This document shows positions 3,377-50,014 of a DNA stretch of 64,000 bases, piece after piece. Position numbers and translations under genes: made by a program. Under the pieces are notes generated by a model. The model searched no databases, was not told the DNA's origin, and was given only the letters and a program-made list of their open reading frames with translations. Each line of letters opens with the position of its first letter. Position 1 is the stretch's first letter. Where the stretch lies: positions 27,603 through 91,602 of the forward strand of contig JBBACQ010000002.1 of assembly GCA_041656935.1 (NCBI GenBank), in the 5' to 3' direction. Source of the stretch: Patescibacteria group bacterium. GTDB lineage: Bacteria > Patescibacteriota > Patescibacteriia > Patescibacteriales > UBA12465.

Positions 3377-3490
3377 TCAAATGATTTTACCAATTGACTT
3401 TTTATCGCTAATAAGTTAATTTAATATGATTACTTTTTGGTAATTATACGATCTTTAAAAATTAAATTAGACAAAATAAAAGGAGAAATC

Positions 3491-6400
3491 ATGATTAATC
3501 GCTATTATCGCTTGTTAAACCCTCAATTAGAACTATGCTTCAATGTTGAGGTGACCTCTCCGTTATCAGATAACGAAGAGTTGGTCTTATTCTGGTTACT
3601 TGCTGAAACTTTCCAAAAAGAAGATTTCGGAAAAGAATCAATGTTAAAATCAGGGAAAATCTTGGAAATTGGTCCCCGACTAAGTTTCGCCACCCCTTGG
3701 AACACTAATGCTTTAAGCATTCTCAAGGAATGTGGATTAAATAAAGTCGTTCGGATTGAAAAATCAAGGCGCTTATTAAATCCCGTTTCGCAGTCAGAAA
3801 ATTTGACCGATTTATATGATCAAATGACTGAATGTATCTGGGATAAAATCCCGGAAAGCTTCTTATCAATTGAAGAACCAAAACCGGTTCTCCAATTACC
3901 CTTATTAGAAAAAGGAATAGAAGTTTTTTCGGAAATTCCAGATTTTAAAGCCATGGATGATTTTGATCGTCAATTTTACTATGACTATTTTGTAGGTGAA
4001 TTAAATCGTAATCCGACTTTTGTTGAGATTATGGATTTAAACAATGCCAACAGTGAACATTCCCGCCATGGTTATTTCAGGGGTAAGCAAATTATTGATG
4101 GAAAATTGATGCCAGAAACTTTAATGGAGATTGTAAAATCAACTTTAAAAGGAAAAAATGAAAAAGGAAGTTTAGTCGCCTTCAAGGACAATTCCAGCGT
4201 CATTATGGCTTACGATTACATCAAAACTTTGATTCCCCAGAAACCCGGTAAAATTTCCAACTTCGTTTTAAAATCACTCCTGTATCATCTCTCATTTACG
4301 GCTGAAACTCACAACTTCCCTTCCGGGATAGCTCCTTTTCCAGGAGCTGAAACTGGAGGTGGAGGACGAATACGTGATGGTCAAGCTGTCGGAATTGGTG
4401 GATTGATAATAGCCGGAACCGCTGGCTATTGTGTCGGGAATTTAGGTTTACCATTTTGTTTATGGGAAAAGAAGGGAGCAAATCCAAAAAATTTGGCTTC
4501 CCCCTTAGACATATTGATTGGAGCTTCTAATGGAGCTTCCGATTATGGGAATAAATTTGGTGAACCCTTAATCTCTGGCTTTGTCCGAACTAGTGCTCTA
4601 ACCGTTAACAACGAAAGACGGGAATGGTTAAAGCCGATAATGTTTACTGGAGGAATTGGACAAATTGATCGCTGGCATTTAGAAAAAATGACACCGCAAG
4701 AAGGAATGCTAATTATCCAAATTGGTGGACCCGCTTATCGTATCGGCTTTGGAGGTGGAAGTGCCTCTTCTCTCATGCAAGGAGAGAATAAATCTGATTT
4801 AGATTTTAATGCCGTTCAAAGAGGAGATGCTGAAATGGAGCAGAAAATGAATCGTGTTATTCGAGCCTGTGTTGAAATGGGAAAGAACAATCCCATTATC
4901 AGTTTGCATGATCAAGGAGCTGGTGGACCGGCTAATGTCTTAAAGGAATTAGTTGAGAAAACTGGTGGTCGAATTGATATTCGTAAAATTCAAGTTGGTG
5001 ATCCGACTATGTCGGTTTTAGAAATTTGGGTTTGCGAATATCAAGAAAGACTTGGCCTAGTGATTGATCCTTCTGACCTAAAAATTTTCCAAAAAATTTG
5101 TAAAAGAGAAAGGGTTAATTGCGAAGTATTAGGTGAGGTTACGGGAGATGGCTATTTTATTGTAGAAGACAGTCAAGCTGGGGCTCTAAATCCTGAACCA
5201 GTGAGAATGGATTTAGCTAAAGTTTTAGGTGGAATGCCACAAAAAACTTTTTCATCAGAAACGATCGTTCCAGAACTCTATCCTCTAATAATTCCGGAAG
5301 GAATTGTTCTTGGTGAAATATTATCCAGAGTTCTAAAACTCCCTTCGGTTGGAAGTAAAAGATTTTTAACCAACAAGGTTGACCGTAGTGTTACGGGGCT
5401 CGTTGCCCAACAGCAATGTTGTGGTCCTTTCCAATTACCAGTGTCTGATTATGCTATGGTGTCTCAAAGCCATTTTCCAGATGAAAGAGGAAAATATTCT
5501 GGAGCTGTCACCAGCATCGGAGAGCAACCTATAAAAATGTTAGTTGATCCATCAGCTGGTGCTCGTATGGCCGTAGCTGAAGCTTTTACTAATATGATGT
5601 TTGCTCAAATTTGTTGGCCCAATACTATCAAATGCTCAGCTAACTGGATGGGGGCACCAAAATTGCCCGGAGAAGGAGCTAAGATGTATTCAGCCGCTTC
5701 AGCTATGAGAGATCTAATGCTAAAGTTGGGTATGGCAGTTGATGGTGGAAAAGACAGTTTATCAATGGCGACCAAAGTCTTTAATCACGATGAGAATAAG
5801 GAAGAGTTGGTAAAATCACCTTTGCAATTGGTTATTTCAGCTTACGCTCCAACAGCCGATATCACGAAGAAAGTCTCTCCCGATATTAAAGAATCGGGAA
5901 ATCACCTAGTCTTTATTGATTTGGCTAATGGGAAAAAGCGTTTAGGTGGATCGGCCTTAGCTCAGGTTTTTGGACAGATAGGAAATGATTGCCCGGACGT
6001 GGAAGACCCCGAATTACTGGTAAAAACAAAGGAAATTGTTAATATTCTCCTAGAGAATAATTTAATCGTTTCTGGCCATGATATCAGTGATGGTGGGTTG
6101 ATTGTTTCTCTTTTAGAGATGGCTTTTTCTGGGAATTCTGGATTTATTATTCATCTACCTGAAAAAAAAGACGAAATTTTTAGTCGTCTTTTCAGTGAAG
6201 AACTGGGCTTAATAATTGAGATAAGCGAACGAACTTTTGAAATAGCTAAAGCATTTTTTTCTGTCGAAAAGATTCCTTTCATTCCAATCGGTTTTACCGG
6301 ACCAAAAGATGTTTTCATCTTTGGCGGTGACAGTGAACTTGTCTTTTCATCTCATTTACAAAATCTTTTTTCTGACTGGGATACTCCTTCTTATGAATTG

Positions 6401-7312
6401 GAAAAGTTTCAAACCAACCTGAAATGCGTAGAAGAAGAAAGGCAACACATTAATTTTTCTAAATCTGGTATTTCTTACGACTTTCACAAAGTCGAAAAAC
6501 CGGTTTCCAGAGATGACTGTTCTCCTAAAGTAGCAATTCTTCGTTCAGAGGGCAGTAATGGTGATCGTGAGATGACCAGCGCTTTCTATCTGGCTGGATT
6601 TGATCCTTATGATGTTCATTTATCTGATTTGCTCTCGGGCAAAACAGATCTAAGTGATTATCAAGGGATCGCTTTTGTGGGAGGTTTTAGTTATGCTGAT
6701 GTTCTGGATTCGGCTAAGGGTTGGGCTGGTATTATAAAGTTTAATGAACGTTTAAGTAGAATGTTTGCTGATTTTTATAATCGCCCTGATACTTTTTCTT
6801 TTGGTGTTTGTAATGGCTGTCAATTAGCAACTCTTTTGGGTTGGGTTCCCTTTGACGATATCATTGATTCTTATCAACCTCGTTTTATCAAAAATACTAG
6901 CGGGCGGTTTGAATCTCGTTGGTCACGGGTGGCTATTTTTAATAGCCCCTCTATAATGTTAAAGGGGATGGAACACCAAGTATTGGGAGTTTGGTCAGCT
7001 CATGGAGAGGGACGATTTTTTGCCGACAAAGAAGTTCTACAAGAAATTCTTGCTCAAAACTTGGCTCCAATCATGTATGTTGACTGGGAAGGTGCAATTA
7101 CTGAAGAATATCCCTTTAATCCCAATGGTTCAGCCCTGGGAATAGCTGGGATATGTGACCCAACAGGACGTCATTTAGCTATGATGCCTCATCCGGAAAG
7201 ATCTTTCTTGAACTGGCAATGGCCATACAAGAATGGTCTTCCAGAAAATGGAGTGTCTCCTTGGCTAACGATGTTTATCAACGCCAGAGAGTGGTGTGAG
7301 AGAAACAGATAA
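3491..7312 (+). CDS. purL: phosphoribosylformylglycinamidine (FGAM) synthase, single-chain large form
   Basis: About 1270 aa with FGAM synthetase domains and a C-terminal glutaminase (GVCNGCQ nucleophile region, HPER motif). ATG at 3491 is preceded by AAAGGAG; the track start at 3437 is a TTG. Confidence 0.9.
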   Translation: MINRYYRLLNPQLELCFNVEVTSPLSDNEELVLFWLLAETFQKEDFGKESMLKSGKILEIGPRLSFATPWNTNALSILKECGLNKVVRIEKSRRLLNPVSQSENLTDLYDQMTECIWDKIPESFLSIEEPKPVLQLPLLEKGIEVFSEIPDFKAMDDFDRQFYYDYFVGELNRNPTFVEIMDLNNANSEHSRHGYFRGKQIIDGKLMPETLMEIVKSTLKGKNEKGSLVAFKDNSSVIMAYDYIKTLIPQKPGKISNFVLKSLLYHLSFTAETHNFPSGIAPFPGAETGGGGRIRDGQAVGIGGLIIAGTAGYCVGNLGLPFCLWEKKGANPKNLASPLDILIGASNGASDYGNKFGEPLISGFVRTSALTVNNERREWLKPIMFTGGIGQIDRWHLEKMTPQEGMLIIQIGGPAYRIGFGGGSASSLMQGENKSDLDFNAVQRGDAEMEQKMNRVIRACVEMGKNNPIISLHDQGAGGPANVLKELVEKTGGRIDIRKIQVGDPTMSVLEIWVCEYQERLGLVIDPSDLKIFQKICKRERVNCEVLGEVTGDGYFIVEDSQAGALNPEPVRMDLAKVLGGMPQKTFSSETIVPELYPLIIPEGIVLGEILSRVLKLPSVGSKRFLTNKVDRSVTGLVAQQQCCGPFQLPVSDYAMVSQSHFPDERGKYSGAVTSIGEQPIKMLVDPSAGARMAVAEAFTNMMFAQICWPNTIKCSANWMGAPKLPGEGAKMYSAASAMRDLMLKLGMAVDGGKDSLSMATKVFNHDENKEELVKSPLQLVISAYAPTADITKKVSPDIKESGNHLVFIDLANGKKRLGGSALAQVFGQIGNDCPDVEDPELLVKTKEIVNILLENNLIVSGHDISDGGLIVSLLEMAFSGNSGFIIHLPEKKDEIFSRLFSEELGLIIEISERTFEIAKAFFSVEKIPFIPIGFTGPKDVFIFGGDSELVFSSHLQNLFSDWDTPSYELEKFQTNLKCVEEERQHINFSKSGISYDFHKVEKPVSRDDCSPKVAILRSEGSNGDREMTSAFYLAGFDPYDVHLSDLLSGKTDLSDYQGIAFVGGFSYADVLDSAKGWAGIIKFNERLSRMFADFYNRPDTFSFGVCNGCQLATLLGWVPFDDIIDSYQPRFIKNTSGRFESRWSRVAIFNSPSIMLKGMEHQVLGVWSAHGEGRFFADKEVLQEILAQNLAPIMYVDWEGAITEEYPFNPNGSALGIAGICDPTGRHLAMMPHPERSFLNWQWPYKNGLPENGVSPWLTMFINAREWCERNR

Positions 7313-7319
7313 CAACAAT

Positions 7320-7345
7320 AAACCCGATTACGATCGGGTTTTTTT
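7320..7345 (+). terminator. Rho-independent terminator of purL
   Basis: Stem ACCCGAT/ATCGGGT with TACG loop, followed by T7. Confidence 0.7.
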
Positions 7346-7399
7346 AATTGAGGGAATGATGCTTTTAATATTGGAGTTAATATTTGTTTTTAATAAAAA

Positions 7400-8011
7400 T
7401 TATTCAATAATTATTACCTCGCCATCTCGTAAAGTTTTGAAAGAAAAATTATTTTTTTTACAAAATTTTATTTCTTTATCTATATCCGCAGATTCAGGGT
7501 GATCTGATTTGTAATGAGGAAAAATTATATAATCTAAAATACCTAAACCATCCCAAATAACTTCTTTTAATTCTTCATAAGGAAAAATATCTGGTCTATC
7601 AACTTGTTGGAGAACCTTAAGAGTTGGGGCTAAAATGCAAATTCCAGCGCTATAACCACCATAAAAAAAATCATCTCTATTTATACTTTTAATAATATCA
7701 TCGAAGCCACTGAGTTTCATTGCTTGGCGTAAAACAAAGGTATTCCCTCCCCGAACCCAGACGCCATCAAGAAGATCAATTTTTTTCTTTAATTCTTCTT
7801 TTTTTCCAAAATAGTTTTTGAGATCAAGCATTTGAACATCAATTCCTAAATCAACTAGGTCTTTCAAATTTTTAAAATTGCTTTCTCCTCTTGCTTCTGA
7901 TTCAACGTAATCTAAAGCGTTTGGGATATATCCAATTTTCTTATTAAGAGTTAGTTCTTTTAGTTTATCAGTTTTTGGTCCGATTTTGTAGGAGGAGAGA
8001 TAAAATTTCAT
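7400..8011 (-). CDS. peptidase E-like (S51 family) protein
   Basis: 203 aa. ...VWVRGGNTFVLRQAMKLSGFDDII...GGYSAGICILAP... matches the S51 dipeptidase E layout. Confidence 0.7.
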   Translation of the reverse strand: MKFYLSSYKIGPKTDKLKELTLNKKIGYIPNALDYVESEARGESNFKNLKDLVDLGIDVQMLDLKNYFGKKEELKKKIDLLDGVWVRGGNTFVLRQAMKLSGFDDIIKSINRDDFFYGGYSAGICILAPTLKVLQQVDRPDIFPYEELKEVIWDGLGILDYIIFPHYKSDHPESADIDKEIKFCKKNNFSFKTLRDGEVIIIE

Positions 8012-8131
8012 ATTTAATTTTAAGTTTAATAATTTTAATAATAGAAATAGCTTAAATAACGTTTATCTATGTTACTTAAAGATTAGTTAAAGTTTAAAAT
8101 GTTTTTTTAAGATAAGGGCAAAAATGCATTT

Positions 8132-8234
8132 CATATAACGTTCGCTGATATCTGACGTTTTGCCACTTCCTTTAAAAATCAATTTAGTGTGGCAAAATGT
8201 GGCTTTAGCCCTTGCAGATATCAGCTGTTGTGTG
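8132..8234 (-). other. attC-like imperfect-palindrome site, copy 1
   Basis: CATATAAC-GTTC-GCTGATATCTG...CAGATATCAGC-T-GTTGTGTG with inner stem TTTTGCCAC/GTGGCAAAA. Lies directly 3' of the nucleotidyltransferase stop codon. The structured repeat is certain; function as a recombination site is inference. Confidence 0.6.
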
Positions 8235-8287
8235 TCCCGAAGGGTCGGAGCGAAGCGGAGAAGTTGGTTTCTCTGGCGTCGTGATTA

Positions 8288-9058
8288 TTAAGTAGGACTT
8301 TTGATTTTCCAGCCATCAATATTAAATCCTCCCATTTTTTCAAGAACATGATTTGTTGCTATTTTATATTCATTCATCATTTTTGACTTATCTTTTAGGT
8401 TGATGGCTGAGACAATCATTTTAACAAATTTTTCATCTGGGAAATTGCTTACAAGATACTTTTTCTTGTCTTTTTCGTTTACTAGAAAACGTCTTAATTT
8501 ATGAATAGGTATTGAATCAAATTGCAAAAATTTCGCATAAGTTTCAAATAAATCATTCAAACAATTATAGAAAACAAAAAAGAATTCTTCCGACTTTGAA
8601 TCAAAAACTTCTTCTAAATTATCACACATATCCCAAATGTGGTATTTTGCTATTTCAATTTGGATCTTATTTTGCTTCGGATTTTTCTTTTGCAAATACT
8701 TTTTGGAATATTTAACAAGTTCTTTTAATTCGCCTGTTTTATCAAAAAGTATTTTTCCAGTACAGAACATGTGAGCGTTTATCTTTCTTCTTGATTTCAG
8801 ATCTTCTTCCAAGTATTGATGATGTCTTTTTGTTGGATTAGCGAAATATTCGATCAAAATACCATCGATAATTTCATTACCTCTTTCTCTCCAGGAAGTT
8901 TTTGCATCTAAAAGGATATGAATATCAATATCTGAATGATTACTAGGATTTCCAGTGATATAGCTACCGCAAACAATAGCCCCAATTACTTCTTTTTTGT
9001 TTTCCCATTTTTTGAGAAATTTTTGTAGGGCAATTCCCCAGTTTTCTTGTTTTTTCAT
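8288..9058 (-). CDS. nucleotidyltransferase-domain protein (Pol-beta superfamily, KNTase/ANT-like)
   Basis: 256 aa with N-terminal motif GSYITGNPSNHSDIDIHILLD (GS-X-D-X-D) and a helical C-terminal domain. Confidence 0.75.
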   Translation of the reverse strand: MKKQENWGIALQKFLKKWENKKEVIGAIVCGSYITGNPSNHSDIDIHILLDAKTSWRERGNEIIDGILIEYFANPTKRHHQYLEEDLKSRRKINAHMFCTGKILFDKTGELKELVKYSKKYLQKKNPKQNKIQIEIAKYHIWDMCDNLEEVFDSKSEEFFFVFYNCLNDLFETYAKFLQFDSIPIHKLRRFLVNEKDKKKYLVSNFPDEKFVKMIVSAINLKDKSKMMNEYKIATNHVLEKMGGFNIDGWKIKSPT

Positions 9059-9100
9059 AAGTCCTGCTTTTAATAAGATAAAACGTTGTTTTCTATTCTA

Positions 9101-9141
9101 GCCAGAGAAACCAATTACACACAACTGTTTATTATACGAAC
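9101..9141 (-). repeat. 5' boundary of the nucleotidyltransferase module
   Basis: GCCAGAGAAACCAA (9101-9114) is the reverse complement of 8264-8277. CACACAAC (9118-9125) complements GTTGTGTG at 8227-8234. CTGTTTATTATACGAAC (9125-9141) matches 30824-30840 at 16/17 positions. Confidence 0.7.
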
Positions 9142-9238
9142 AATCTCTCCACATTACCCCCCAACCAACCATACCAACCTTACAACAATTCTACCACACC
9201 CCCACAAAAATCTCAACCCCAAAAACCCCTCCCCAATT
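9139..9238. other. 100-nt G-free C/A-rich tract (G-run-rich on the minus strand)
   Basis: No G on the + strand between G9138 and G9239. The minus strand carries GGGG, GGGG, GGGG, GGGGG and GGGGGG runs. Confidence 0.9.
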
Positions 9239-9291
9239 GCCATTTTCAGAAAAATAATATAAACTCTCAACATAAACCTTAACCTAATTTT

Positions 9292-16817: not shown

Positions 16818-16821
16818 ATTG

Positions 16822-16894
16822 TGGGCATAGATGGATTTGAACCATCGACCCCCGCCTTATAAGGGCGGTGCTCTAACCACTGAGCCATATGCCC
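16822..16894 (-). tRNA. tRNA-Ile (anticodon TAT)
   Basis: Acceptor GGGCATA/TATGCCC, anticodon stem CCGCC/GGCGG, loop CTTATAA, T-arm GATGG-TTCAAAT-CCATC. Confidence 0.8.
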
Positions 16895-27621: not shown

Positions 27622-27714
27622 AGTTTTTAAATTAAATTTAAATTATATAATAAGTATTTTTTATTTTTTTACAAACTTCTTTTTTATCTATGAGTTAAAA
27701 ACTATTAAATATTT

Positions 27715-27802
27715 CACATAACGTTCGTTGATATCTGACGTTCTCCGTAGCGATAGCAGAGGAGAATGTGGCGAAGCCCTTGCAGATATCAGCTGTTATG
27801 TG
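27715..27802 (-). other. attC-like imperfect-palindrome site, copy 2
   Basis: CACATAAC-GTTC-GTTGATATCTG...CAGATATCAGC-T-GTTATGTG with inner stem TTCTCC/GGAGAA. Lies directly 3' of the HD gene stop codon. Confidence 0.6.
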
Positions 27803-27838
27803 CCCCAAAGGGTCGGAGCGATAGCGGAGATGTAAATC

Positions 27839-28423
27839 TTAAACTCCTTTTATTTTTCGTTGGTACTCATCCCAATCGTTTTTCATCTGTTCAAGCTTGG
27901 GTTTACCTAAACGTCGGCTAATATCAAAATTCAACAAATCAAATTTACCAAGCTTCCGTTGAATTTCATCCGTAAGTCCGTTTTTAAAAACCCACTCGAT
28001 CCAGAGCATATACAGTTTTTTATCAAAATACAAAGCGACCGCGTCTGCATCTTTTACAATTTTCATTTCGGTTGAATCACTACTATATGAAATAATATCA
28101 CGAACATGTTTTAATTCATCAATGTCTAGACCAAGACTGTTCAAGAATTCTTGAGATACGGATAAGTTAAAACTTTCGTGGTTTTTATGGAGCGTTTCCG
28201 GATCAGCATGATGGGTCTTGCCAATATCGTGTAGTAATGCACCAATCGCGGCTACGGTTTTATTACACTCAACTTCTTCAGATATTTTCATCACCAGCTC
28301 TTGGACTGTAACGCTATGGTTGTACATAACCGACCAATGATTAAAACTAAAATGCGGGTTCTTTTGAAAAGAACGTTTTACAAATTCTTTTGTTTTTTCA
28401 ACTAAATCGTGTTTATATTCCAT
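27839..28423 (-). CDS. HD-domain phosphohydrolase
   Basis: 194 aa with metal-binding ...GALLHDIGK... HD motif. Confidence 0.75.
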   Translation of the reverse strand: MEYKHDLVEKTKEFVKRSFQKNPHFSFNHWSVMYNHSVTVQELVMKISEEVECNKTVAAIGALLHDIGKTHHADPETLHKNHESFNLSVSQEFLNSLGLDIDELKHVRDIISYSSDSTEMKIVKDADAVALYFDKKLYMLWIEWVFKNGLTDEIQRKLGKFDLLNFDISRRLGKPKLEQMKNDWDEYQRKIKGV

Positions 28424-28450
28424 AAAAATAAAAGGGGTTTAAGATTTATT

Positions 28451-28547
28451 GCACATAACGTTTGCGGATATGAGAAGTTGCGACCGTAGGGAGCAATTTG
28501 GGTGAGCCCCGAGCCGAGGGGCGAACCTCATATCCGCTGTTATACGC
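28451..28547 (-). other. attC-like imperfect-palindrome site, copy 3
   Basis: GCACATAAC-GTTT-GCGGATATGAG...CTCATATCCGC-T-GTTATACGC. The 11-bp stem differs from copies 1 and 2 at three positions, all compensated on the other arm. Confidence 0.6.
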
Positions 28548-28601
28548 CCCGACGACTGAAAGGAGGAGAGCGCAGCGTGGCACGGAGCGAAGCGGAGTGA
28601 G

Positions 28602-28694
28602 TTCAAAAAATATTTTTCGTTCTCATTAATTATGATAGGCTTTCCTCAATTCTTATAAATTTGATTTTTTCCGTTTTGAAAAATGAAAGAGGGG
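28602..28694. repeat. left arm of a long imperfect inverted repeat flanking the rSAM-methyltransferase pair
   Basis: Collinear identical blocks versus the reverse complement of 30727-30813: 17 nt (28602-28618), 13 nt (28632-28644), 14 nt (28657-28670) and 7 nt (28688-28694). Confidence 0.8.
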
Positions 28695-28728
28695 TTAGGG
28701 GTGAATTTCATTTTTCAAATTCATTAAT

Positions 28729-29838
28729 TTAAGGATGTAAATGTTCTACGCAACCTTTATTTCTTGGAATGTGTTTTGCTAAATATTTTGTAGCTTCACA
28801 AAACTCTTTAACTATCCCTAAAAAATTTCCAGTTGAATAATAAGCCAAGCCCGCACAACCTCCACCACAATTTGATCTTATTTCGCAATTTTTGCATTCA
28901 TCAATAAATTTTGTATTTCTTTGCCTTATTCTTGTCATCTTTTCAGGATAATATATAATTTCATTTTTTTCTTTATCATATTTTCCAAAGATAAATTCTG
29001 AAAGTTGCGTTTTTCCTGAATATGCTAAATCACATCCAGAAACATAACCATCAGCAGTAAGTTGAGGCATTGGGATACAAGAACGACACGCGTAATTACA
29101 AGGTTCATCAAAATTTACTGTGAAAAAATTACCATAGTGCATTCCAATTTTTTCAGCATGTTTGTATGCTTTAACAAAATGTTCAGCAAATTCCTTTAAG
29201 TTTATAGGTGTAATTTGTTTTACTCCTGCTTTACCTTCTTGTTTGACGCTTTCAAAAACAGGTTCGGCATAAACCCATTTTATCCCTATTGAATTAAAAT
29301 AATCCAATATTTCAATTTGCTTATTTATGTCTTGGGGCAAGATTGTTGCTCTTGCACCAACAAAAACTCCTTCTTTTTGTAAAAATTTTACATTTCTGAC
29401 GATGGTGTCAGAAGTTTCTTGACCTCCTCTCGCAGGTCTGTTTCTATTTTGAATATAACTTGGTCCATCAATCGAAATCCATACTTCAGCAACATTTTTT
29501 GCAATCCATTTTGCCGTATCTTCTGAAAAAAATCCATTTGTTTGCAATTCTACAAACAAATCTTTTCCTTTAATTTTTTTAGCATATTCTGTAATTGCTT
29601 TTACTAAATCCATTCTTGTGGTTGGTTCTCCAACTCCATAAAATCTAATCATATTATTGCCAACACCAAAAAAGTCTGTTTTATCCCTGAAAAAATCATC
29701 CATACCTTTTTTGGCAAAATCCAAATCAATTGCTTTTTCCTCTCCAACATGTCTTGTGTCATTAACACAATAAACGCAGTTTAGATTGCATTTAGATGTT
29801 ATGAAAAAAGTTATTGTTCTTTTTCTTTCGTGAGCCAT
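28729..29838 (-). CDS. radical SAM enzyme with C-terminal SPASM-type Cys cluster
   Basis: 369 aa with CNLNCVYC (CxxxCxxC), GVGEPT and QTNG motifs, and C-terminal CKNCEIRSNCGGGCAG. Confidence 0.8.
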   Translation of the reverse strand: MAHERKRTITFFITSKCNLNCVYCVNDTRHVGEEKAIDLDFAKKGMDDFFRDKTDFFGVGNNMIRFYGVGEPTTRMDLVKAITEYAKKIKGKDLFVELQTNGFFSEDTAKWIAKNVAEVWISIDGPSYIQNRNRPARGGQETSDTIVRNVKFLQKEGVFVGARATILPQDINKQIEILDYFNSIGIKWVYAEPVFESVKQEGKAGVKQITPINLKEFAEHFVKAYKHAEKIGMHYGNFFTVNFDEPCNYACRSCIPMPQLTADGYVSGCDLAYSGKTQLSEFIFGKYDKEKNEIIYYPEKMTRIRQRNTKFIDECKNCEIRSNCGGGCAGLAYYSTGNFLGIVKEFCEATKYLAKHIPRNKGCVEHLHP

Positions 29839-29839
29839 A

Positions 29840-30649
29840 TTATTTCCTCGCAGTTAAAAAATAATAACCGACATTAGTATAATTTATTTTTTTATTATTT
29901 CCACGCATTAATTCAGGTTTTATATTTTTGAAATTAGAATTTTTTAATTGTTCTAAGATTATTGGTAGGCAAACTTTTAATTCTTCAATTCTCAAAATAT
30001 CCATAAAAGCTGTTTTGATTTGATCAATCACGTCTGCCTCTTGAGGTTTTGGCATTGATAAAATTTGTGCAGAAGCATATTTTAAAATATTTTCAATAAA
30101 TTGTACTTTATTTTTTGGGTTAAAATTTTTATCAAATTCATAATCTGGAATAAATACTTCAGCAACAATTAAAGTACCTCCAACTTTTAGATTATTATAG
30201 ATATTTTTTATTGCTTTTGGTTTGTCAAAAAGATGATGATAAGTAGCTGTTAAAATTACTATATCAAAATAATTTTCTTTCTGAAAAATTTCAGCTGTCC
30301 CATTTAGGATTTTCGCCTTACCTTTTGTTTCTTTGTTTGTCATATCTCTAAAAACTTTTTCAGGTTCAACAACGACATACTCTTGAATATTTTTATTATT
30401 GATAATTTTGCCAGCTAAAATACCTGGTCCAGAGCCATATTCCAAAATTTTGACAGGTCTTTTTTGTTGGTTGATAATTTTTTCAATTCTATCAAACCAC
30501 TCTAAATATAATGGATATTGTTTAACTTGTTCTAAGTATTGTTTTCTTATGGTTGTTGGGTCTGTCACTGAATATCCTTTTTGCAAAGATTCCCCTAATT
30601 CATTTATTGATTTCCAGATTTGGTTTGAATTTTTTTTAATCATATTCAT
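29840..30649 (-). CDS. class I SAM-dependent methyltransferase
   Basis: 269 aa with motif I ILEYGSGPGILA. Its stop codon lies 1 nt from the rSAM start, so the two are probably co-transcribed. Confidence 0.75.
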   Translation of the reverse strand: MNMIKKNSNQIWKSINELGESLQKGYSVTDPTTIRKQYLEQVKQYPLYLEWFDRIEKIINQQKRPVKILEYGSGPGILAGKIINNKNIQEYVVVEPEKVFRDMTNKETKGKAKILNGTAEIFQKENYFDIVILTATYHHLFDKPKAIKNIYNNLKVGGTLIVAEVFIPDYEFDKNFNPKNKVQFIENILKYASAQILSMPKPQEADVIDQIKTAFMDILRIEELKVCLPIILEQLKNSNFKNIKPELMRGNNKKINYTNVGYYFLTARK

Positions 30650-30726
30650 TAAGTATAGTTAAGAATTTAAAAAGTCTTCTAATATAAATCGTTTTCGGAA
30701 CGAAGTGGAGAAAACACCATATTATC

Positions 30727-30813
30727 CCCCTCTATAAATAAAGAAAAAATCAAATTTATTCCCCTTTGAAAGCCTATCATTTCTTATTCTCCGTTAGAAA
30801 AATATTTTTTGAA
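30727..30813. repeat. right arm of the long imperfect inverted repeat
   Basis: Blocks at 30797-30813, 30768-30780, 30744-30757 and 30727-30733 are reverse complements of the left-arm blocks. Confidence 0.8.
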
Positions 30814-30815
30814 TT

Positions 30816-30840
30816 GCATATAACTGGTTATTATACGAAC
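30816..30840 (-). repeat. 5' boundary of the rSAM-methyltransferase module
   Basis: GCATATAAC (30816-30824) complements GTTATACGC at 28539-28547 at 8/9 positions. CTGGTTATTATACGAAC (30824-30840) matches 9125-9141 at 16/17. Confidence 0.7.
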
Positions 30841-30949
30841 TTATTACTTAATAATTCCAAAAATCTTCAAATTATGCGAATAAAAAAATTATTTTTTATT
30901 AAAACCATTATTATTATAACAAGAAATATAACCAAAATCAATTTAAACC

Positions 30950-46644: not shown

Positions 46645-46742
46645 GTATTTGTTGATATTATTATTTCTTTTCTTATTATACCATAATTTTAAAAAATATA
46701 AAAAAATAGTTTTCATTTAAACTATTAAAAATAAAAAACCCT

Positions 46743-46768
46743 TCTCCGGAGAAAAGGGTAAAAGTTAA
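46743..46768 (-). terminator. Rho-independent terminator of paralog A
   Basis: Minus strand CCCTTTTCTCCGGAGAAGGG followed by T6. Near-identical copy at 47809-47834. Confidence 0.7.
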
Positions 46769-46780
46769 AAGTAACAAGGG

Positions 46781-47554
46781 TCAAGAAACTACTTCACGGG
46801 AACGCAAACCATAATCAGAAAAGCCAGGACTACACCGCCCGACACCGAGCCCGCCACCGCTAGAACACCAACGAACACGGGGAACATAGCCATCAGAATA
46901 GCGCGAACCAGTACACAGCGTCCGATTACTGATGTCTAAATGCTTTTTGGTTCTATCAAAATACAGAATTTCTAATAACAATCTTTCCATCAAGGTAATT
47001 CCCTTGTGGTTCATAACCTTCAATTGATCAGCTGGAAAATCTTTGAATTCCTCATCAGCTTCAATGTTTCGGTTAAACAAAACAATATAGTCACCATTTT
47101 TAGCATCTCTATCATTGTGATTCACAGAGGTGTCTAGGTCTTCTTTATGCAAAGAAACCTTAAACTTCAGCCTCATCTCAGCTACAATCTGATTCTTCGT
47201 AAGTCCTTGAGCGACAATGACCGCAAAGTGCTTTCTGGGGTCATAGTGTTCTGGAACCTGCAAATCAGAAAAATCTTTCTCTAGACCGAACCATTTTTTG
47301 TAGATCCTCTGCCAAGTGGATTTAATTTGACGACTATTTTTGTTGTCGTCAAACAAACACTCAGCAAAAGCCTCAATAGCGGGATCTTTTTTACGACCAC
47401 TTTTTATAACCTCAGCTACCTTCTTCGCCAGAATAGGATCAGATCTCAACAAAGAAAGATCGCTCAAAATGATCCCCTGATCTTGCAGAGCTTTTAAGGT
47501 TGCTCCAACCTCGCCATAACTGGCGTTCCATAAACCAGAATTGTCTTTTTTCAT
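46781..47554 (-). CDS. hypothetical protein, paralog A
   Basis: ATG at 47552-47554 preceded by GGAGG. Central 170 aa are near-identical to paralog B; N-terminus and C-terminal tail are divergent. Confidence 0.7.
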   Translation of the reverse strand: MKKDNSGLWNASYGEVGATLKALQDQGIILSDLSLLRSDPILAKKVAEVIKSGRKKDPAIEAFAECLFDDNKNSRQIKSTWQRIYKKWFGLEKDFSDLQVPEHYDPRKHFAVIVAQGLTKNQIVAEMRLKFKVSLHKEDLDTSVNHNDRDAKNGDYIVLFNRNIEADEEFKDFPADQLKVMNHKGITLMERLLLEILYFDRTKKHLDISNRTLCTGSRYSDGYVPRVRWCSSGGGLGVGRCSPGFSDYGLRSREVVS

Positions 47555-47638
47555 GACTTTTCCTCCACATTTTATGCCTTGTCTGATATAAATTACAGAC
47601 TTTGGCGGGTTAATAATAATTTCAAAGAACATATCTCT

Positions 47639-47667
47639 ATTACAACATAGTAATTAGAAAAAGTCAA
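47639..47667 (-). promoter_or_regulatory. promoter of paralog A
   Basis: On the minus strand: TTGACT, 17-nt spacer, TGTAAT. The -35 region lies in a 25-nt block (47651-47675) that is 24/25 identical to 57001-57025. Confidence 0.55.
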
Positions 47668-47808
47668 GGGTAAATAATTGTAGTACTTTGCTACAATTAA
47701 CAAAAAATTATGCAACAATTAATTTTAATTAAATTATGCAATCAAAATAAATCAAAGAATTATTTATAGAACAGCTTAAATTTTCATTAAATAATTATTT
47801 CCAAAAAT

Positions 47809-47834
47809 AAAAAACCCTTCTCCGAAGAAAAGGG
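47809..47834 (-). terminator. Rho-independent terminator of paralog B
   Basis: Duplicate of the 46743-46768 hairpin with one substitution in the loop. Confidence 0.7.
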
Positions 47835-47856
47835 TAAAAGTTAAAAGTAACAAGGG

Positions 47857-48603
47857 TTAGGAAGAAACTACTGCGCGGGAACGCAAAAAGTCACTAGAAC
47901 GGTCAGGATACGACCAAATAACACAAAGCAAGCCATCGCTAGAATTCCAACCGACATCGGGAACACAGCCATCAGAATCGCGCGACCCAGTACACAGCGT
48001 CCAATTACTGATATCCAAATGCTTTTTGGTTCTATCAAAATACAGAATTTCTAATAGCAATCTTTCCAGCAAGGTAATCCCCTTGTGTTCTATCGCCTTT
48101 AGCTGGTTAGCTGAGTAATTTTTGAACTCTTCATCAGCTTCAACATTTTTGTTGAACACAACGATATAGTCGCCATTTTCGGCCTTTCTATCATTGTGAT
48201 TCACAGAGGTGTCTAGGTCTTCTTTATGCAAAGAAACCTTAAACTTCAGCCTCATCTCAGCTACAATCTGATTCTTCGTAAGTCCTTGAGCGACAATGAC
48301 CGCAAAGTGTTTGCGCGGGTCATAATTTTCCGGAACCTGCAGGTCAGAAAAATTTTTCTCTAGACCGAACCATTTCTTGTAGATCCTCTGCCAAGTGGAT
48401 TTAATTTGACGACTGTTTTTGTTGTCGTCAAATTTCTTAGCAAAAATTGTTCCGACCAAATCATAAATCGGATCGGGATTATTAATCAGGTTGCTAACCT
48501 GCCCCGATGAGGGGTTGGCCTTATTAAGGGCTAATTCTATAATTCGCAATAGCTCCATACCTTGTTTGAAGCTTGCTGGACTTTGGAAACTCTTGTTTTC
48601 CAT
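47857..48603 (-). CDS. hypothetical protein, paralog B
   Basis: ATG at 48601-48603 preceded by GGAGG. Shares the core ...DDNKNSRQIKSTWQRIYKKWFGLEK...LCTGSR... with paralog A. Confidence 0.7.
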   Translation of the reverse strand: MENKSFQSPASFKQGMELLRIIELALNKANPSSGQVSNLINNPDPIYDLVGTIFAKKFDDNKNSRQIKSTWQRIYKKWFGLEKNFSDLQVPENYDPRKHFAVIVAQGLTKNQIVAEMRLKFKVSLHKEDLDTSVNHNDRKAENGDYIVVFNKNVEADEEFKNYSANQLKAIEHKGITLLERLLLEILYFDRTKKHLDISNWTLCTGSRDSDGCVPDVGWNSSDGLLCVIWSYPDRSSDFLRSRAVVSS

Positions 48604-48733
48604 TTTTACCTCCATTTTTAAAGGGTTTATAAAAAGAACAAATTTATAAAAAATATTATCATATTTAAATTAATTTGTCAATATAGCATTTTTTTATAAT
48701 CTATACTATTATACTTTTATACCGAGAAAATCT

Positions 48734-48807
48734 GGTCCGATGGTGAAGTGGTTTAACACTACAGTTTGCAAAACTGTCACTCGTGGGTTCGAATCCCACT
48801 CGGACCT
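48734..48807 (+). tRNA. tRNA-Cys (anticodon GCA)
   Basis: Acceptor GGTCCGA/TCGGACC, anticodon stem ACAGT/ACTGT, loop TTGCAAA, T-arm GTGGG-TTCGAAT-CCCAC. Confidence 0.85.
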
Positions 48808-49284
48808 CTGAAAAAAACAACCCAAACTGCTTTGGGTTGTTTTTTTTATATGACAAAAGAGTGGGATGAGAAAGCCGGAGCCCATGTGCACGAAGTGCAC
48901 GGGCGAGGCCGGGTCGGGGCGCTTGTTTTTATCAAGCCGAAGGCGCAGAGAAAAACTTAGCGACCGTGACCGAATCCCACTCGGACCTCTGAAAAAAACA
49001 ACCCAAACTGCTTTGGGTTGTTTTTTTTATAAGACAAGAGAGTGGGATTCGAAAGCCGGAGCCCATGTGCACGAAGTGCACGGGCGAGGCCGGGTCGGGG
49101 CGCTTGTTTTTATCAAGCCGAAGGCGCAGAGAAAAACTTAGCGACCGTGACCGAATCCCACTCGGACCTCTGAAACATAAGAAGCTAACCTGCGTTAGCT
49201 TCTTATGTTTTATATGACAAAAGAGTGGGATTCGAAAGCCCTCCTTCGCCATATTTCATATGGCTTCGGCGGGCAAGCCGGAGC
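48790..49284 (+). repeat. tandem repeat seeded on the tRNA-Cys 3' end (period 181 bp; two full units plus a variant third)
   Basis: CGAATCCCACTCGGACCTCTGAAA occurs at 48790, 48971 and 49152. Units 1 and 2 are near-identical. Unit 3 keeps the ends but has a different terminator hairpin and interior. Confidence 0.9.
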
Positions 49285-49301
49285 AGAAATTATTTTAATA
49301 A

Positions 49302-49616
49302 TTATTTTTTACGAATAGATTCTAAATTAGCTTTTAAATTAACATAAAAATCTGGAGCCTTTATCTTCATCCCTAAGGCGTCAGCTATTCTAGCTAAGAA
49401 ACTCAAACTGGGCAAATCCAAGCCCCTCTCCAATCTAGATATGCTCGATTGTTTAGTGAAAAGTCGCTTAGCTAATTCTTCTTGAGTTAAACCCATCATT
49501 AACCTAGCTTTAATAATGTTTTCCGAAACCTCAAAAACTAAATTAGAATTGTCATAATAATATTTTTTGAAGTCTTCATTTTTAAATAATTCTTTTTTTA
49601 TATTTTTTAAACTCAT
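49302..49616 (-). CDS. XRE-family HTH protein, HigA-like antitoxin
   Basis: 104 aa with HTH ...MGLTQEELAKRLFTKQSSISRLERG... Lies directly downstream of the toxin-like gene. Confidence 0.7.
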   Translation of the reverse strand: MSLKNIKKELFKNEDFKKYYYDNSNLVFEVSENIIKARLMMGLTQEELAKRLFTKQSSISRLERGLDLPSLSFLARIADALGMKIKAPDFYVNLKANLESIRKK

Positions 49617-49633
49617 AATTTTATTTTAATTAA

Positions 49634-49996
49634 TTAAAAATTTAATTCTAGTTCTTTTTTTCTTTTCTCAGCTAACTCAATTTCGTCAACTGGGGTTTTC
49701 TTTTTTTTCTTGTAAAAAATATTGGTTAAATAAAAATTACCATTAATAATCGAGAAAAATATCCTATAATTAGCCTTCTTCCAATTAATTATTAATTCAA
49801 AAATATTTTTTCTACCTTTTATCTTCTTAACTAATTTAATTCTTAATAAAAGATCTAAATTATTTTCTTCTAATCTTTCCAATGTTTTCAAAATCTTTTT
49901 AGCATGATCAACTCTCCCTTTCAAAAACAAGTCATTTATATATAACGAAATTAATAAATCACCTCGAGAATTAAAATATTGTCTGATATTATTCAT
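49634..49996 (-). CDS. RelE/HigB (Gp49-like) family toxin
   Basis: ...NIFELIINWKKANYRIFFSIINGNFYLTNIFYKKKKKTPVDEIELAEKR... fits the HigB/Gp49 pattern. ATG at 49994-49996; the track start is a TTG. Confidence 0.6.
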   Translation of the reverse strand: MNNIRQYFNSRGDLLISLYINDLFLKGRVDHAKKILKTLERLEENNLDLLLRIKLVKKIKGRKNIFELIINWKKANYRIFFSIINGNFYLTNIFYKKKKKTPVDEIELAEKRKKELELNF

Positions 49997-50014
49997 TATA
50001 ATAAATAATATCAA

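Follow-up and report, generated by a model that had tools for sequence, protein, structure and literature searches.

The window analysed here is a 64-kb stretch of a Patescibacteria contig (JBBACQ010000002.1, positions 27,603 to 91,602; assembly GCA_041656935.1) with a G+C content of ~32%, in which core genes (rpoB/C, ATP synthase, dnaK/J, grpE, several aminoacyl-tRNA synthetases, topA and dprA) lie together with genes for pilin-like proteins. Its YchF protein is 84-86% identical to proteins on long contigs of relatives, one of them from Candidatus Falkowbacteria, and the host is a Falkowbacteria-like Patescibacterium. The window contains three minus-strand gene modules, which we read, with a probability of roughly 80%, as mobile gene cassettes of the integron type whose recombination sites are folded attC sites, forming two small arrays in a Patescibacteria chromosome. 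Array 1 consists of one cassette (A, encoding a nucleotidyltransferase) and array 2 of two, the first (rSAM+MT) encoding a methyltransferase and a radical S-adenosylmethionine (SAM) enzyme and the second (HD) an HD hydrolase.

To place the attC sites, a gapped pattern derived from the three sites of the window was used to retrieve 41 loci from a collection of species-representative genomes, and related sites were then defined by a structure-anchored scan and a covariance model (CM R1) built from 38 distinct sites. With this model, whose E-values are rough, exactly three attC sites were found in the window (8139-8234, 27722-27803 and 28459-28547), all on the minus, gene-sense strand, with scores of 69.5, 65 and 85 bits, respectively; the next candidate scored 17 bits. 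The three sites share one layout, in which a box ending in AAC, a single A, an 11-bp stem and a branched variable tip are followed by the return arm of the stem, RAAC and GTT. At gathering thresholds the Rfam matches in the window were limited to four tRNAs, and none of its families covered the hairpins.

The features of array 1 are the following (ORF, open reading frame; aa, amino acids):

8139..9124, minus strand: cassette A, 986 nt, comprising leader, nucleotidyltransferase gene, trailer and attC
8288..9058, minus strand: cargo ORF of 256 aa, Pol-beta-type nucleotidyltransferase (Pfam PF18765, E 8e-8; PF01909)
9118-9124, minus strand: 5' end of cassette A, TTGTGTG, one occurrence in the window
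8227-8234, minus strand: R'' box of cassette A, CACACAAC, one occurrence in the window
8139..8234, minus strand: attC E1, with R'' CACACAAC, 11-bp stem GCTGATATCTG/CAGATATCAGC, branched variable tip, GAAC and G (CM R1 69.5 bits, E 2e-14; DNA fold z-scores -3.9 top, -4.7 bottom)
9101..9114, minus strand: 5' arm of the outer stem, TTGGTTTCTCTGGC in gene sense, one occurrence; also in loci L011 and L024
8264..8277, minus strand: 3' arm of the outer stem, GCCAGAGAAACCAA, pairing with 9101-9114 in the joined-junction fold
8235..8263, minus strand: insert X, between outer stem and R'' box, carrying CTCCGCTTCGCTCCG (8246-8260) and CCCTTCGGG
8128..8138, minus strand: R' extension TTATATGAAAT past the last attC of the array, fitting the family consensus GTTAKRYGAAAT
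9125..9141, minus strand: attI-like head box, GTTCGTATAATAAACAG; the crossover follows the G at 9125
9188..9216, minus strand: promoter-like sequence TTGAGA-17-TG-TAGAAT directed into the array, 10/12 matches

Array 2 contains:

28459..30823, minus strand: cassette rSAM+MT, 2365 nt, two genes
29840..30649, minus strand: cargo ORF of 269 aa, class I SAM methyltransferase (Pfam PF13489, PF08241)
28729..29838, minus strand: cargo ORF of 369 aa, radical SAM/SPASM peptide-maturase-like (Pfam PF04055)
30816-30823, minus strand: 5' end of rSAM+MT, TTATATGC, one occurrence in the window
28539-28547, minus strand: box of rSAM+MT, GCGTATAAC, one occurrence in the window
30679..30823, minus strand: conserved leader of ~145 nt, one half of a "chassis", with three blocks complementary to the trailer
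28548..28728, minus strand: conserved trailer of ~180 nt, the other half of the chassis, insert X included, pairing with the leader in the joined fold
28459..28547, minus strand: attC E3 (CM R1 85.2 bits, E 4e-18)
27722..28458, minus strand: cassette HD, 737 nt, bounded by E3 and E2
27839..28423, minus strand: cargo ORF of 194 aa, HD-domain phosphohydrolase (Pfam PF01966, E 1e-11)
28451-28458, minus strand: 5' end of HD, TTATGTGC, one occurrence in the window
27795-27803, minus strand: box of HD, GCACATAAC, one occurrence in the window
28437..28447, minus strand: 5' arm of the HD outer stem, AAATCTTAAAC; the joined fold lengthens the stem to ~20 bp
27834..27844, minus strand: 3' arm of the HD outer stem, GTTTAAGATTT, which overlaps the stop codon of the HD ORF
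27722..27803, minus strand: attC E2 (CM R1 65.2 bits, E 2.5e-13)
27711..27721, minus strand: TTATGTGAAAT, past the last attC of the array, compared with the family consensus GTTAKRYGAAAT
30824..30840, minus strand: attI-like head box, GTTCGTATAATAACCAG
30871..30881, minus strand: second, direct copy of the left-arm box, ATTCGCATAAT, upstream of the head box
30913..30941, minus strand: promoter-like sequence TTGATT-17-TG-TATAAT directed into the array, 10/12 matches

The motif of insert X recurs in the window at 28583-28597, 27814-27829 and 30696-30710. No attC was detected by the covariance-model scan between the two genes of rSAM+MT, and the second of these (28729..29838) also matched an NCBIfam PapB-like model at 113 bits, which is under the cut-off. 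The promoter-like sites (10/12 matches, extended TG) are located 50-70 nt upstream of the two head boxes, where a complete integron has the Pc promoter that drives its cassettes; their numbers are not above those in shuffled sequences, and the one pointing into array 2 is at most suggestive.

Cassette ends, boundaries and the attC family

According to the initial annotation, the first bases of each module complement the box at the module's own distant 3' end and fit less well the box that abuts them in the linear DNA. All of the sequences it quoted lie where it had placed them, each once in the window, and own-end complementarity was found in all three modules: the fit is perfect for A and HD and has one mismatch for rSAM+MT, whereas the abutting boxes are the poorer match, A having two transition mismatches there, rSAM+MT two mismatches, and HD 5/6 matching bases against an own-end 6/6. 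Because three modules alone provide weak statistics, we tested the rule on related sequence, using the six variable bases of the 5' box in 62 cassettes bounded by two sites in the 41 loci. The own end (the bases after the GTT of the previous site) matched at a mean of 4.79/6 positions (n=62), compared with 3.11/6 for the abutting box (the bases after the cassette's own GTT) and 3.18/6 for random pairs, such that the own end won over the adjacent box in 45 cassettes, lost in 7 and tied in 10 (sign test, p ~1e-7). As the covariance model had been built with the 5' box paired to the abutting box, any bias that it introduces works against this result.

The complementarity extends beyond the boxes. 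The 14-bp outer stem that had been described for module A (9101-9114/8264-8277) was confirmed, its arms pairing in the joined fold, and outer stems overlooked at that stage are present in HD (28437-28447/27834-27844) and in rSAM+MT, where at least three colinear blocks of the leader are complementary to the trailer. Such stems are general in the family: in 43/62 cassettes the complementarity between own leader and own trailer lay above the 95th percentile of the non-own control, and the median score of the best local leader/trailer complementarity was 14 for own pairs versus 8 for pairs taken from different cassettes. They fall into two classes, in which the trailer arm either abuts the 5' box or is separated from it by a 29-68-nt insert with CTCCGCTTCGCTCCG-like motifs, and the resulting palindrome reaches 11-60 bp past the R box, across the crossover.

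Folding gave the same picture. In 50 of 57 cassettes the trailer and attC folded better when joined to the cassette's own leader than with the linear neighbour (Wilcoxon p ~1e-9), with a mean energy gain of 10.2 kcal/mol for the top strand and 12.0 kcal/mol for the bottom strand. For the window cassettes, the bottom-strand energies of the joined versus linear arrangement were -47.6 vs -34.2 kcal/mol (A), -37.9 vs -27.6 (HD) and -78.4 vs -55.2 (rSAM+MT). Chance complementarity in AT-rich flanks, which the annotation had named as a possible refutation, is excluded by the own-end and outer-stem tests on 62 cassettes and the folding test on 57.

The boundaries of the modules recur in other genomes. 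Cassette A was found in two Peribacteria-binned contigs, in L011 with 92% identity over 1019 nt and within a nine-site array, and in L024 with 94% identity over 1001 nt. In both, the breakpoints are exactly those predicted: homology sets in at |TTGTGTGTAATTGG (|TTGTGTG), equivalent to 9124/9125, with unrelated bases 5' of it (...aaacag in the window, ...gaaacg in L011, ...gccgccg in L024), and stops at ...AACG| (8138/8139), beyond which the continuation is different in every contig. Cassette A is a discrete unit present in three contexts with G|TT breakpoints at both ends, as a mobile element should be. For rSAM+MT, the homology of the leader in other loci begins at 30823/30824, and that of trailer and attC ends at 28454-28457, within 2-5 nt of 28458/28459. 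The rSAM+MT leader is 79-94% identical in five other loci (L035, L070, L042, L056 and L041), with clearly different cargo in L041 and L070. L041, a relative, is syntenic with the window (rpoC, pth, dprA, topA, in that order); downstream of topA it has a head box as in the window (GTTCGCATAATAACCAG, at the same place), followed by the same leader, trailer and attC type, with a short-chain dehydrogenase as cargo in place of the methyltransferase and radical-SAM enzyme. L041 also carries a KilA-N-domain gene (4891-5727) between topA and the attI-like box, absent there in the window.

Two smaller observations concern the site of cassette A. When L011 4519-4620 was compared with window 8139-8234, the outer parts of the attC were identical and the variable tip wholly different, and the hairpin tip appears to be exchangeable as a module. 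In addition, a weak covariance-model match on the minus strand at 8052-8079 (TAACATAGATAAACGTTATTT; 14.8 bits, E 0.3), 60 nt 3' of attC E1, could be a collapsed attC remnant or a chance match.

At the family level, 108 sites were found in the 41 loci, on one strand per locus and in arrays of up to nine sites per 8 kb, with a length of 49-188 nt (median 91) and GTTAGGC as the commonest R'. Related sites show compensatory double changes in 9/11 stem pairs, and the asymmetry of the spacers, 1 nt (A) versus 4 nt (RAAC), is conserved. As single-stranded DNA the window sites fold with z-scores of -2.4 to -4.7 against shuffled sequences, and the best-folding strand at all three is the plus strand of the window (the bottom strand with respect to the genes). 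An imperfect palindrome, an R'' box in ..AAC, an R' box in GTT.. and a conserved structure, by which attC sites are recognised, are therefore all present. The family is moreover strand-biased in sequence: the motif GCTNCGC was counted 72 times on the top strand, its reverse complement not once, and CTTCG occurs 103 times compared with 6 for CGAAG. On the bottom strand the former reads GCGNAGC, the pattern of the GNA-loop mini-hairpin, a very stable DNA structure; these strand-specific motifs would fit a substrate that acts as folded bottom-strand DNA.

Beyond structure, the attC sequence is 90-99% conserved across phyla, a claim that rests mainly on the Ignavibacteriota chromosome CP053447.1 (L008, 3.7 Mb) and the Altiarchaeales IMC4 scaffold MCBF01000001.1 (L032, 1.39 Mb). 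On the latter, a site 94.6% identical to attC E3 was found; this single E3-type attC (5186-5310) lies 3' of a 601-aa ORF and is followed by a palindrome, G|TTATGCGAAC-TTTTT-GTTCGCATAA, the arms of which have the arm sequence of the attI box. Its position on a long scaffold suggests that the same site family is present across domains. The supplements of Ghaly et al. do not list the Altiarchaeales and Methanolobus records matched here. Some cassettes are very short, with 147-340 nt between sites (L029 1594-1949, L017 1148-1583 and L011 7104-7559); they seem to consist of leader and trailer stems only and may represent an "empty chassis", relevant to the origin of cassettes.

Array 1 lies in the interval between a csoR-like gene and ychF (window 3380-9290), a variable hot spot in the window's lineage. 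The interval contains purL, an S51 peptidase gene and cassette A in the window, an HpaII-type restriction-modification pair and a dCTP deaminase gene in L124, and unrelated genes in L126 and L127, and is almost empty in L122. attC and attI were found in it in the window only, with none in L122, L124, L126 or L127, and the ychF locus of L122, L124 and L126 has neither attI-like box nor cassette; an empty attI upstream of ychF in the relatives was accordingly rejected. Relatives do keep a G-rich promoter-like region upstream of ychF, corresponding in L122 and L124 to 9188..9216. Because the interval of the relatives holds no attI or attC, array 1 is a lineage-specific insertion.

attI-like boxes and a compact recombinase in relatives

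Both window arrays open with a conserved box, GTTCGTATAATAA(A/C)CAG|TT, and the head box of array 1 is identical to 30828-30840 of array 2 in 13/13 bases. The direct second copy of the left-arm box upstream of array 2 has a counterpart in L041 and L038, where a comparable tandem box lies ~41 nt upstream. A search for head boxes with the 13-mer and two mismatches was noisy, and the spaced pattern TTCGNATA-N7-GTT proved specific. In the attC loci and the window the box occurs eight times, in seven cases heading an array, and five of these seven (the two in the window and those in L041, L004 and L038) have no integrase in the stretch examined. At the other end of array 1, TTATATGAAAT is probably the right arm that the attI-like site originally had.

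Within 4 kb of the 41 attC loci, only two recombinases were found, both compact (L019 and L030). Each is a ~275-aa tyrosine recombinase encoded divergently, with its start 60-110 nt from an attI-like box (CTTCGTATATAAGGAG|TTAGGCGAAAT in L019, CTTCGGATATGAACGAG|TTGTGCGAAAT in L030), and the cassettes that follow these boxes obey the own-end rule. In the compact recombinase the IntI-specific domain (VchIntIA residues 182-244) is replaced by ~20 residues. We widened the sample by a metagenome scan, which yielded 80 loci with recombinase relatives, at 41-52% identity except in L042, whose protein is identical to that of L019; in 79 of the loci the recombinase ORFs cluster at ~270 aa. All attC sites detected near the 80 recombinase genes with the covariance model (61/61) lie upstream on the opposite strand, and at least one attC is present in 24 of the 34 recombinase loci having at least 1 kb of upstream sequence. 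A consensus nTTCG[TCG]ATA-N7-G|TT, to which the head box of array 1 conforms, is found ~100-125 nt upstream of the aligned recombinase start in 28/76 loci, and an inverted copy of the arm often precedes the recombinase-adjacent box. In Falkowbacteria, the full platform (divergent recombinase, attI-like box and cassettes) adjoins smpB and infC. The recombinase family is represented in Patescibacteria in very high numbers (6963 proteins at E<1e-30), and its members are variously annotated as XerD, tyrosine recombinase or "site-specific tyrosine recombinase/integron integrase".

The best candidate for the enzyme that moves the cassettes is this ~275-aa IntI/XerA-like recombinase of the relatives. 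It would have to act in trans in the host, because the window encodes no such enzyme.

Mechanism, competing explanations and known systems

By analogy with characterised integrons, a tyrosine recombinase would cut and exchange a single strand at G|TT, with either two folded attC sites or an attI and an attC as partners, and release a circle in which the 3' G of the cassette is joined to its 5' TT. The predicted circle junctions read ...GAACG|TTGTGTG... for A, ...CGAACG|TTATGTGC... for HD and ...CAAACG|TTATATGC... for rSAM+MT (extended: ATCAGCGAACG|TTGTGTGTAATTGG, ATCAACGAACG|TTATGTGCAATAAA and ATCCGCAAACG|TTATATGCAATTC), and the predicted empty sites GTTCGTATAATAAACAG|TTATATGAAAT and GTTCGTATAATAACCAG|TTATGTGAAAT. 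Circle closure, by joining the two ends, would explain why the first bases of a cassette pair with the distant box of that cassette and not with the abutting one. Within the circle, R'' box, R' box and outer stem (11-60 bp) would form one long palindrome; present only after excision, it plausibly favours extrusion of the hairpin for insertion, in which the folded bottom strand would recombine with a double-stranded attI by a single crossover. Circle formation, recombination through the bottom strand and the choice of enzyme active in the host are inferred. The logic of the cassettes as such is textbook integron biology.

The integron-type interpretation put forward in the initial annotation is supported by the covariation of the stems, the same-strand arrays, the own-end rule, the exact breakpoints and the platform in relatives. 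Several points weigh against it. No tyrosine recombinase was found in the 64-kb window by motif scan and profile search of all six frames, the attI-like boxes of the window adjoin no integrase, and recombination in the host would depend on an enzyme encoded outside the window. The compact recombinase of the relatives is linked to the cassettes by adjacency and orientation only and lacks the ~43-aa IntI-specific domain, which IntI was reported to require for its activity (Messier and Roy 2001, as cited in PMC9668308). The extrahelical bases of the L box, which in typical attC sites direct recognition of the bottom strand together with an unpaired central spacer, were not identified in the sites, where the conserved asymmetric spacer is present instead. 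The folding of the joined ends is no more than consistent with a putative circle, and the integron model does not account for the arrival of box and cassette upstream of ychF. Finally, the taxonomic labels are those given by the submitters of the metagenome-assembled genomes (MAGs), in which short cassette contigs are easily mis-binned.

Among the competing explanations, the one that survives best is that these are ordinary CALIN-type or orphan cassettes made and moved by a canonical IntI, extra domain included, encoded elsewhere or in other organisms, the compact recombinase being a bystander or a degenerate relative. The R boxes are indeed canonical (GCCTAAC...GTTAGGC), contigs binned to Treponema and archaeal MAGs carry the same attC types, there are published descriptions of archaeal integrons and of a Spirochaetota sister clade of IntIs that have the extra domain (PMC9668308), and attC clusters that have no integron integrase (CALINs) generally outnumber complete integrons (PMC9668308, PMC9024848). 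However, no canonical IntI turned up next to the present attC family, around whose 41 loci the two recombinases within 4 kb are both compact, and an attI-like box at a fixed distance, with all 61 attC sites upstream of a divergent gene, is unlike what a bystander would leave. We regard this explanation as unlikely.

A further possibility is that the cassettes exploit the housekeeping single Xer recombinase in bacteria of the candidate phyla radiation (CPR), as integrative mobile elements exploiting Xer (IMEX) do, with the "attI" box being dif and the hairpins mimicking it. In the XerS/difSL and XerH/difH systems dif lies next to the recombinase gene, and the folded genome of CTX phage mimics dif. 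The L019 protein matches the NCBIfam model XerA_Arch best, at 240.6 bits (cut-off 220), and the IntI model TIGR02249 at 208 bits (cut-off 265) in two pieces, and the L030 protein scores 216.9 and 215.5 bits with the two models; the proteins lack the extra domain of IntI and belong to a family abundant in Patescibacteria, and the head box with its right arm, GTTCGTATAAT-AAMCAG-TTATRTGAAAT, reads as two inverted arms, an arrangement that we take to resemble E. coli dif. Against this, the best match of the L019 protein in the PDB is VchIntIA (155.8 bits) and not XerA (141 bits, in a gapless alignment), and long multi-cassette arrays with own-end covariation are integron behaviour. Nor do the boxes mark a replication terminus: a plus-to-minus switch of GC skew was seen at none of ~12 loci with ~10 kb of flanks, several of which showed no switch or the opposite one, and in the window, where the skew is negative from ~8 kb to 64 kb, the two directly oriented boxes are separated by 21.7 kb and flank essential genes, and the skew switches at neither of them. 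The absence of a skew switch in the window and the recombinase loci also separates these elements from IMEX integrated at a terminus dif, and we consider such exploitation of a housekeeping Xer quite improbable.

That the sites are immobile intergenic repeats, such as repetitive extragenic palindromes (REP), miniature inverted-repeat transposable elements (MITE) or terminators, with end complementarity arising by chance, might be entertained from their 3' intergenic positions and the weak statistics of three modules, but is highly improbable given the family-level tests that exclude chance, the three contexts of cassette A with exact breakpoints, the absence of a T-run terminator and the tight recombinase association (61/61 attC), all of which tie the sites to cassettes, arrays and a recombinase. 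Ends of IS200/IS605 single-stranded-DNA transposons (no Y1 transposase) and group II introns (no reverse transcriptase) were rejected as well, the boundary here being G|TT with arrays.

Returning to the integron-type interpretation, the elements share with integrons a cargo followed by an imperfect-palindrome attC with AAC and GTT boxes, a crossover within GTT such that the first bases of the cassette belong to its own attC, same-strand arrays whose structure is kept by covariation, an attI core with two inverted arms and, in the relatives, a divergent tyrosine recombinase next to attI. They differ from class 1 and sedentary chromosomal integrons in the length of the recombinase (~275 aa, without the IntI-specific domain), in the palindrome that extends 11-60 bp past the R box across the crossover, in the frequent 29-68-nt insert with bottom-strand GCGNAGC motifs, in the reuse of leader, trailer and attC as a ~420-nt chassis with different cargo, in the high cross-phylum conservation of the attC sequence, and in attI-like boxes at several chromosomal places without an adjacent integrase. 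An intI gene with the IntI-specific domain, as in a complete integron, was found neither in the window nor among the neighbouring recombinases of relatives; the attI-like box heads both window arrays without an integrase and adjoins the recombinase in relatives.

CALIN and single orphan attC are categories of the IntegronFinder software (Cury 2016, Néron 2022), and are most likely the labels that standard software would give these arrays: by that definition, applied to the covariance-model sites and the recombinase search of the window, array 2, with two neighbouring attC sites (at least two being required) and no integron integrase nearby, is a CALIN, and array 1 is a single site. Unlike CALINs, these orphan arrays open with an attI-like box, and their site family is tied to a specific non-canonical recombinase clade. 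Archaeal integrons are known from MAGs of uncultured anaerobes, mostly as CALINs and with an attI that is semi-conserved across phyla (PMC9668308), and imply cross-domain sharing of cassettes (Ghaly et al. 2022, PMC9668308). The E3-type attC on the Altiarchaeales scaffold is a point of likeness to them, whereas their IntIs are reported to have the IntI-specific domain (PMC9668308) that the present recombinases lack.

Xer/dif systems (the folded attP of CTX phage, IMEX, XerS/difSL, XerH/difH and XerA) have in common with the present one the Xer-like architecture and XerA model match, a dif-like core site, a folded single-stranded hairpin partner and a recombinase gene next to the site. The present sites differ in lying away from the GC-skew terminus, in forming multi-cassette arrays, in lying as a close pair in one chromosome, and in bounding cassettes without replication or phage functions. 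The pdif modules of Acinetobacter plasmids are likewise small gene modules bounded by Xer-like sites, but theirs are inverted, double-stranded XerC/D sites, with neither a hairpin attC nor an own-end complementarity rule.

It is tempting, though at somewhat less than even odds, to see here a large and perhaps undescribed integron lineage centred on CPR bacteria that differs from known integrons in four ways (compact integrase, palindromic chassis, mini-hairpins with cargo reuse, and orphan attI pads). Its ~275-aa integrase without the IntI-specific domain would possibly be an Xer-IntI intermediate; its sites may form the core of a 150-430-nt palindromic chassis spanning the crossover; the chassis may carry bottom-strand GNA mini-hairpins and be reused with different cargo; one chromosome may hold several integrase-less attI landing pads; and cassettes may be shared with Ignavibacteriota, Bacteroidota, Spirochaetes and archaea. 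A literature search of incomplete coverage, and therefore no proof of novelty, brought up no work that deals with CPR integrons or with an integron integrase without the domain.

By itself, the own-end rule merely adds Patescibacteria to the hosts of cassettes. The IntI-specific domain, in contrast, is treated as both defining and essential, and standard detection software keys on it; if a widespread clade without the domain does occupy the integron position, many arrays labelled as CALINs would have an unrecognised integrase, and the compact clade would be a concrete candidate for the transition from Xer to IntI. How genes become joined to attC sites is a long-standing question, for which a conserved ~420-nt chassis with varied cargo provides a defined object. 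Sites so nearly identical across distant phyla and an archaeal scaffold would, binning permitting, point to an active cassette pool shared among uncultured anaerobes.

Other features of the window

Three further observations were made in the window. A tRNA-Ile with the anticodon TAT was identified by ARAGORN at 16821-16894, an uncommon bacterial way of reading AUA. The region 46727-48615 contains two paralogous genes with no assigned function (46781-47632, in which Pfam gave no match, and 47857-48615) with ~79% nucleotide identity over 300 nt; 3' of each lies a hairpin-containing stretch of 61 nt, 95% identical between the two. Finally, a 181-nt unit is tandemly repeated about three times after a tRNA-Cys gene (48734-48808; region 48734-49330), and each copy (at 48790, 48971 and 49152) opens with 24 nt of the 3' end of tRNA-Cys. 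The repeats adjoin an Xre-like helix-turn-helix gene (49302-49616) and a small gene (49634-50014), and could be repeated attachment sites of a tRNA-integrated element.

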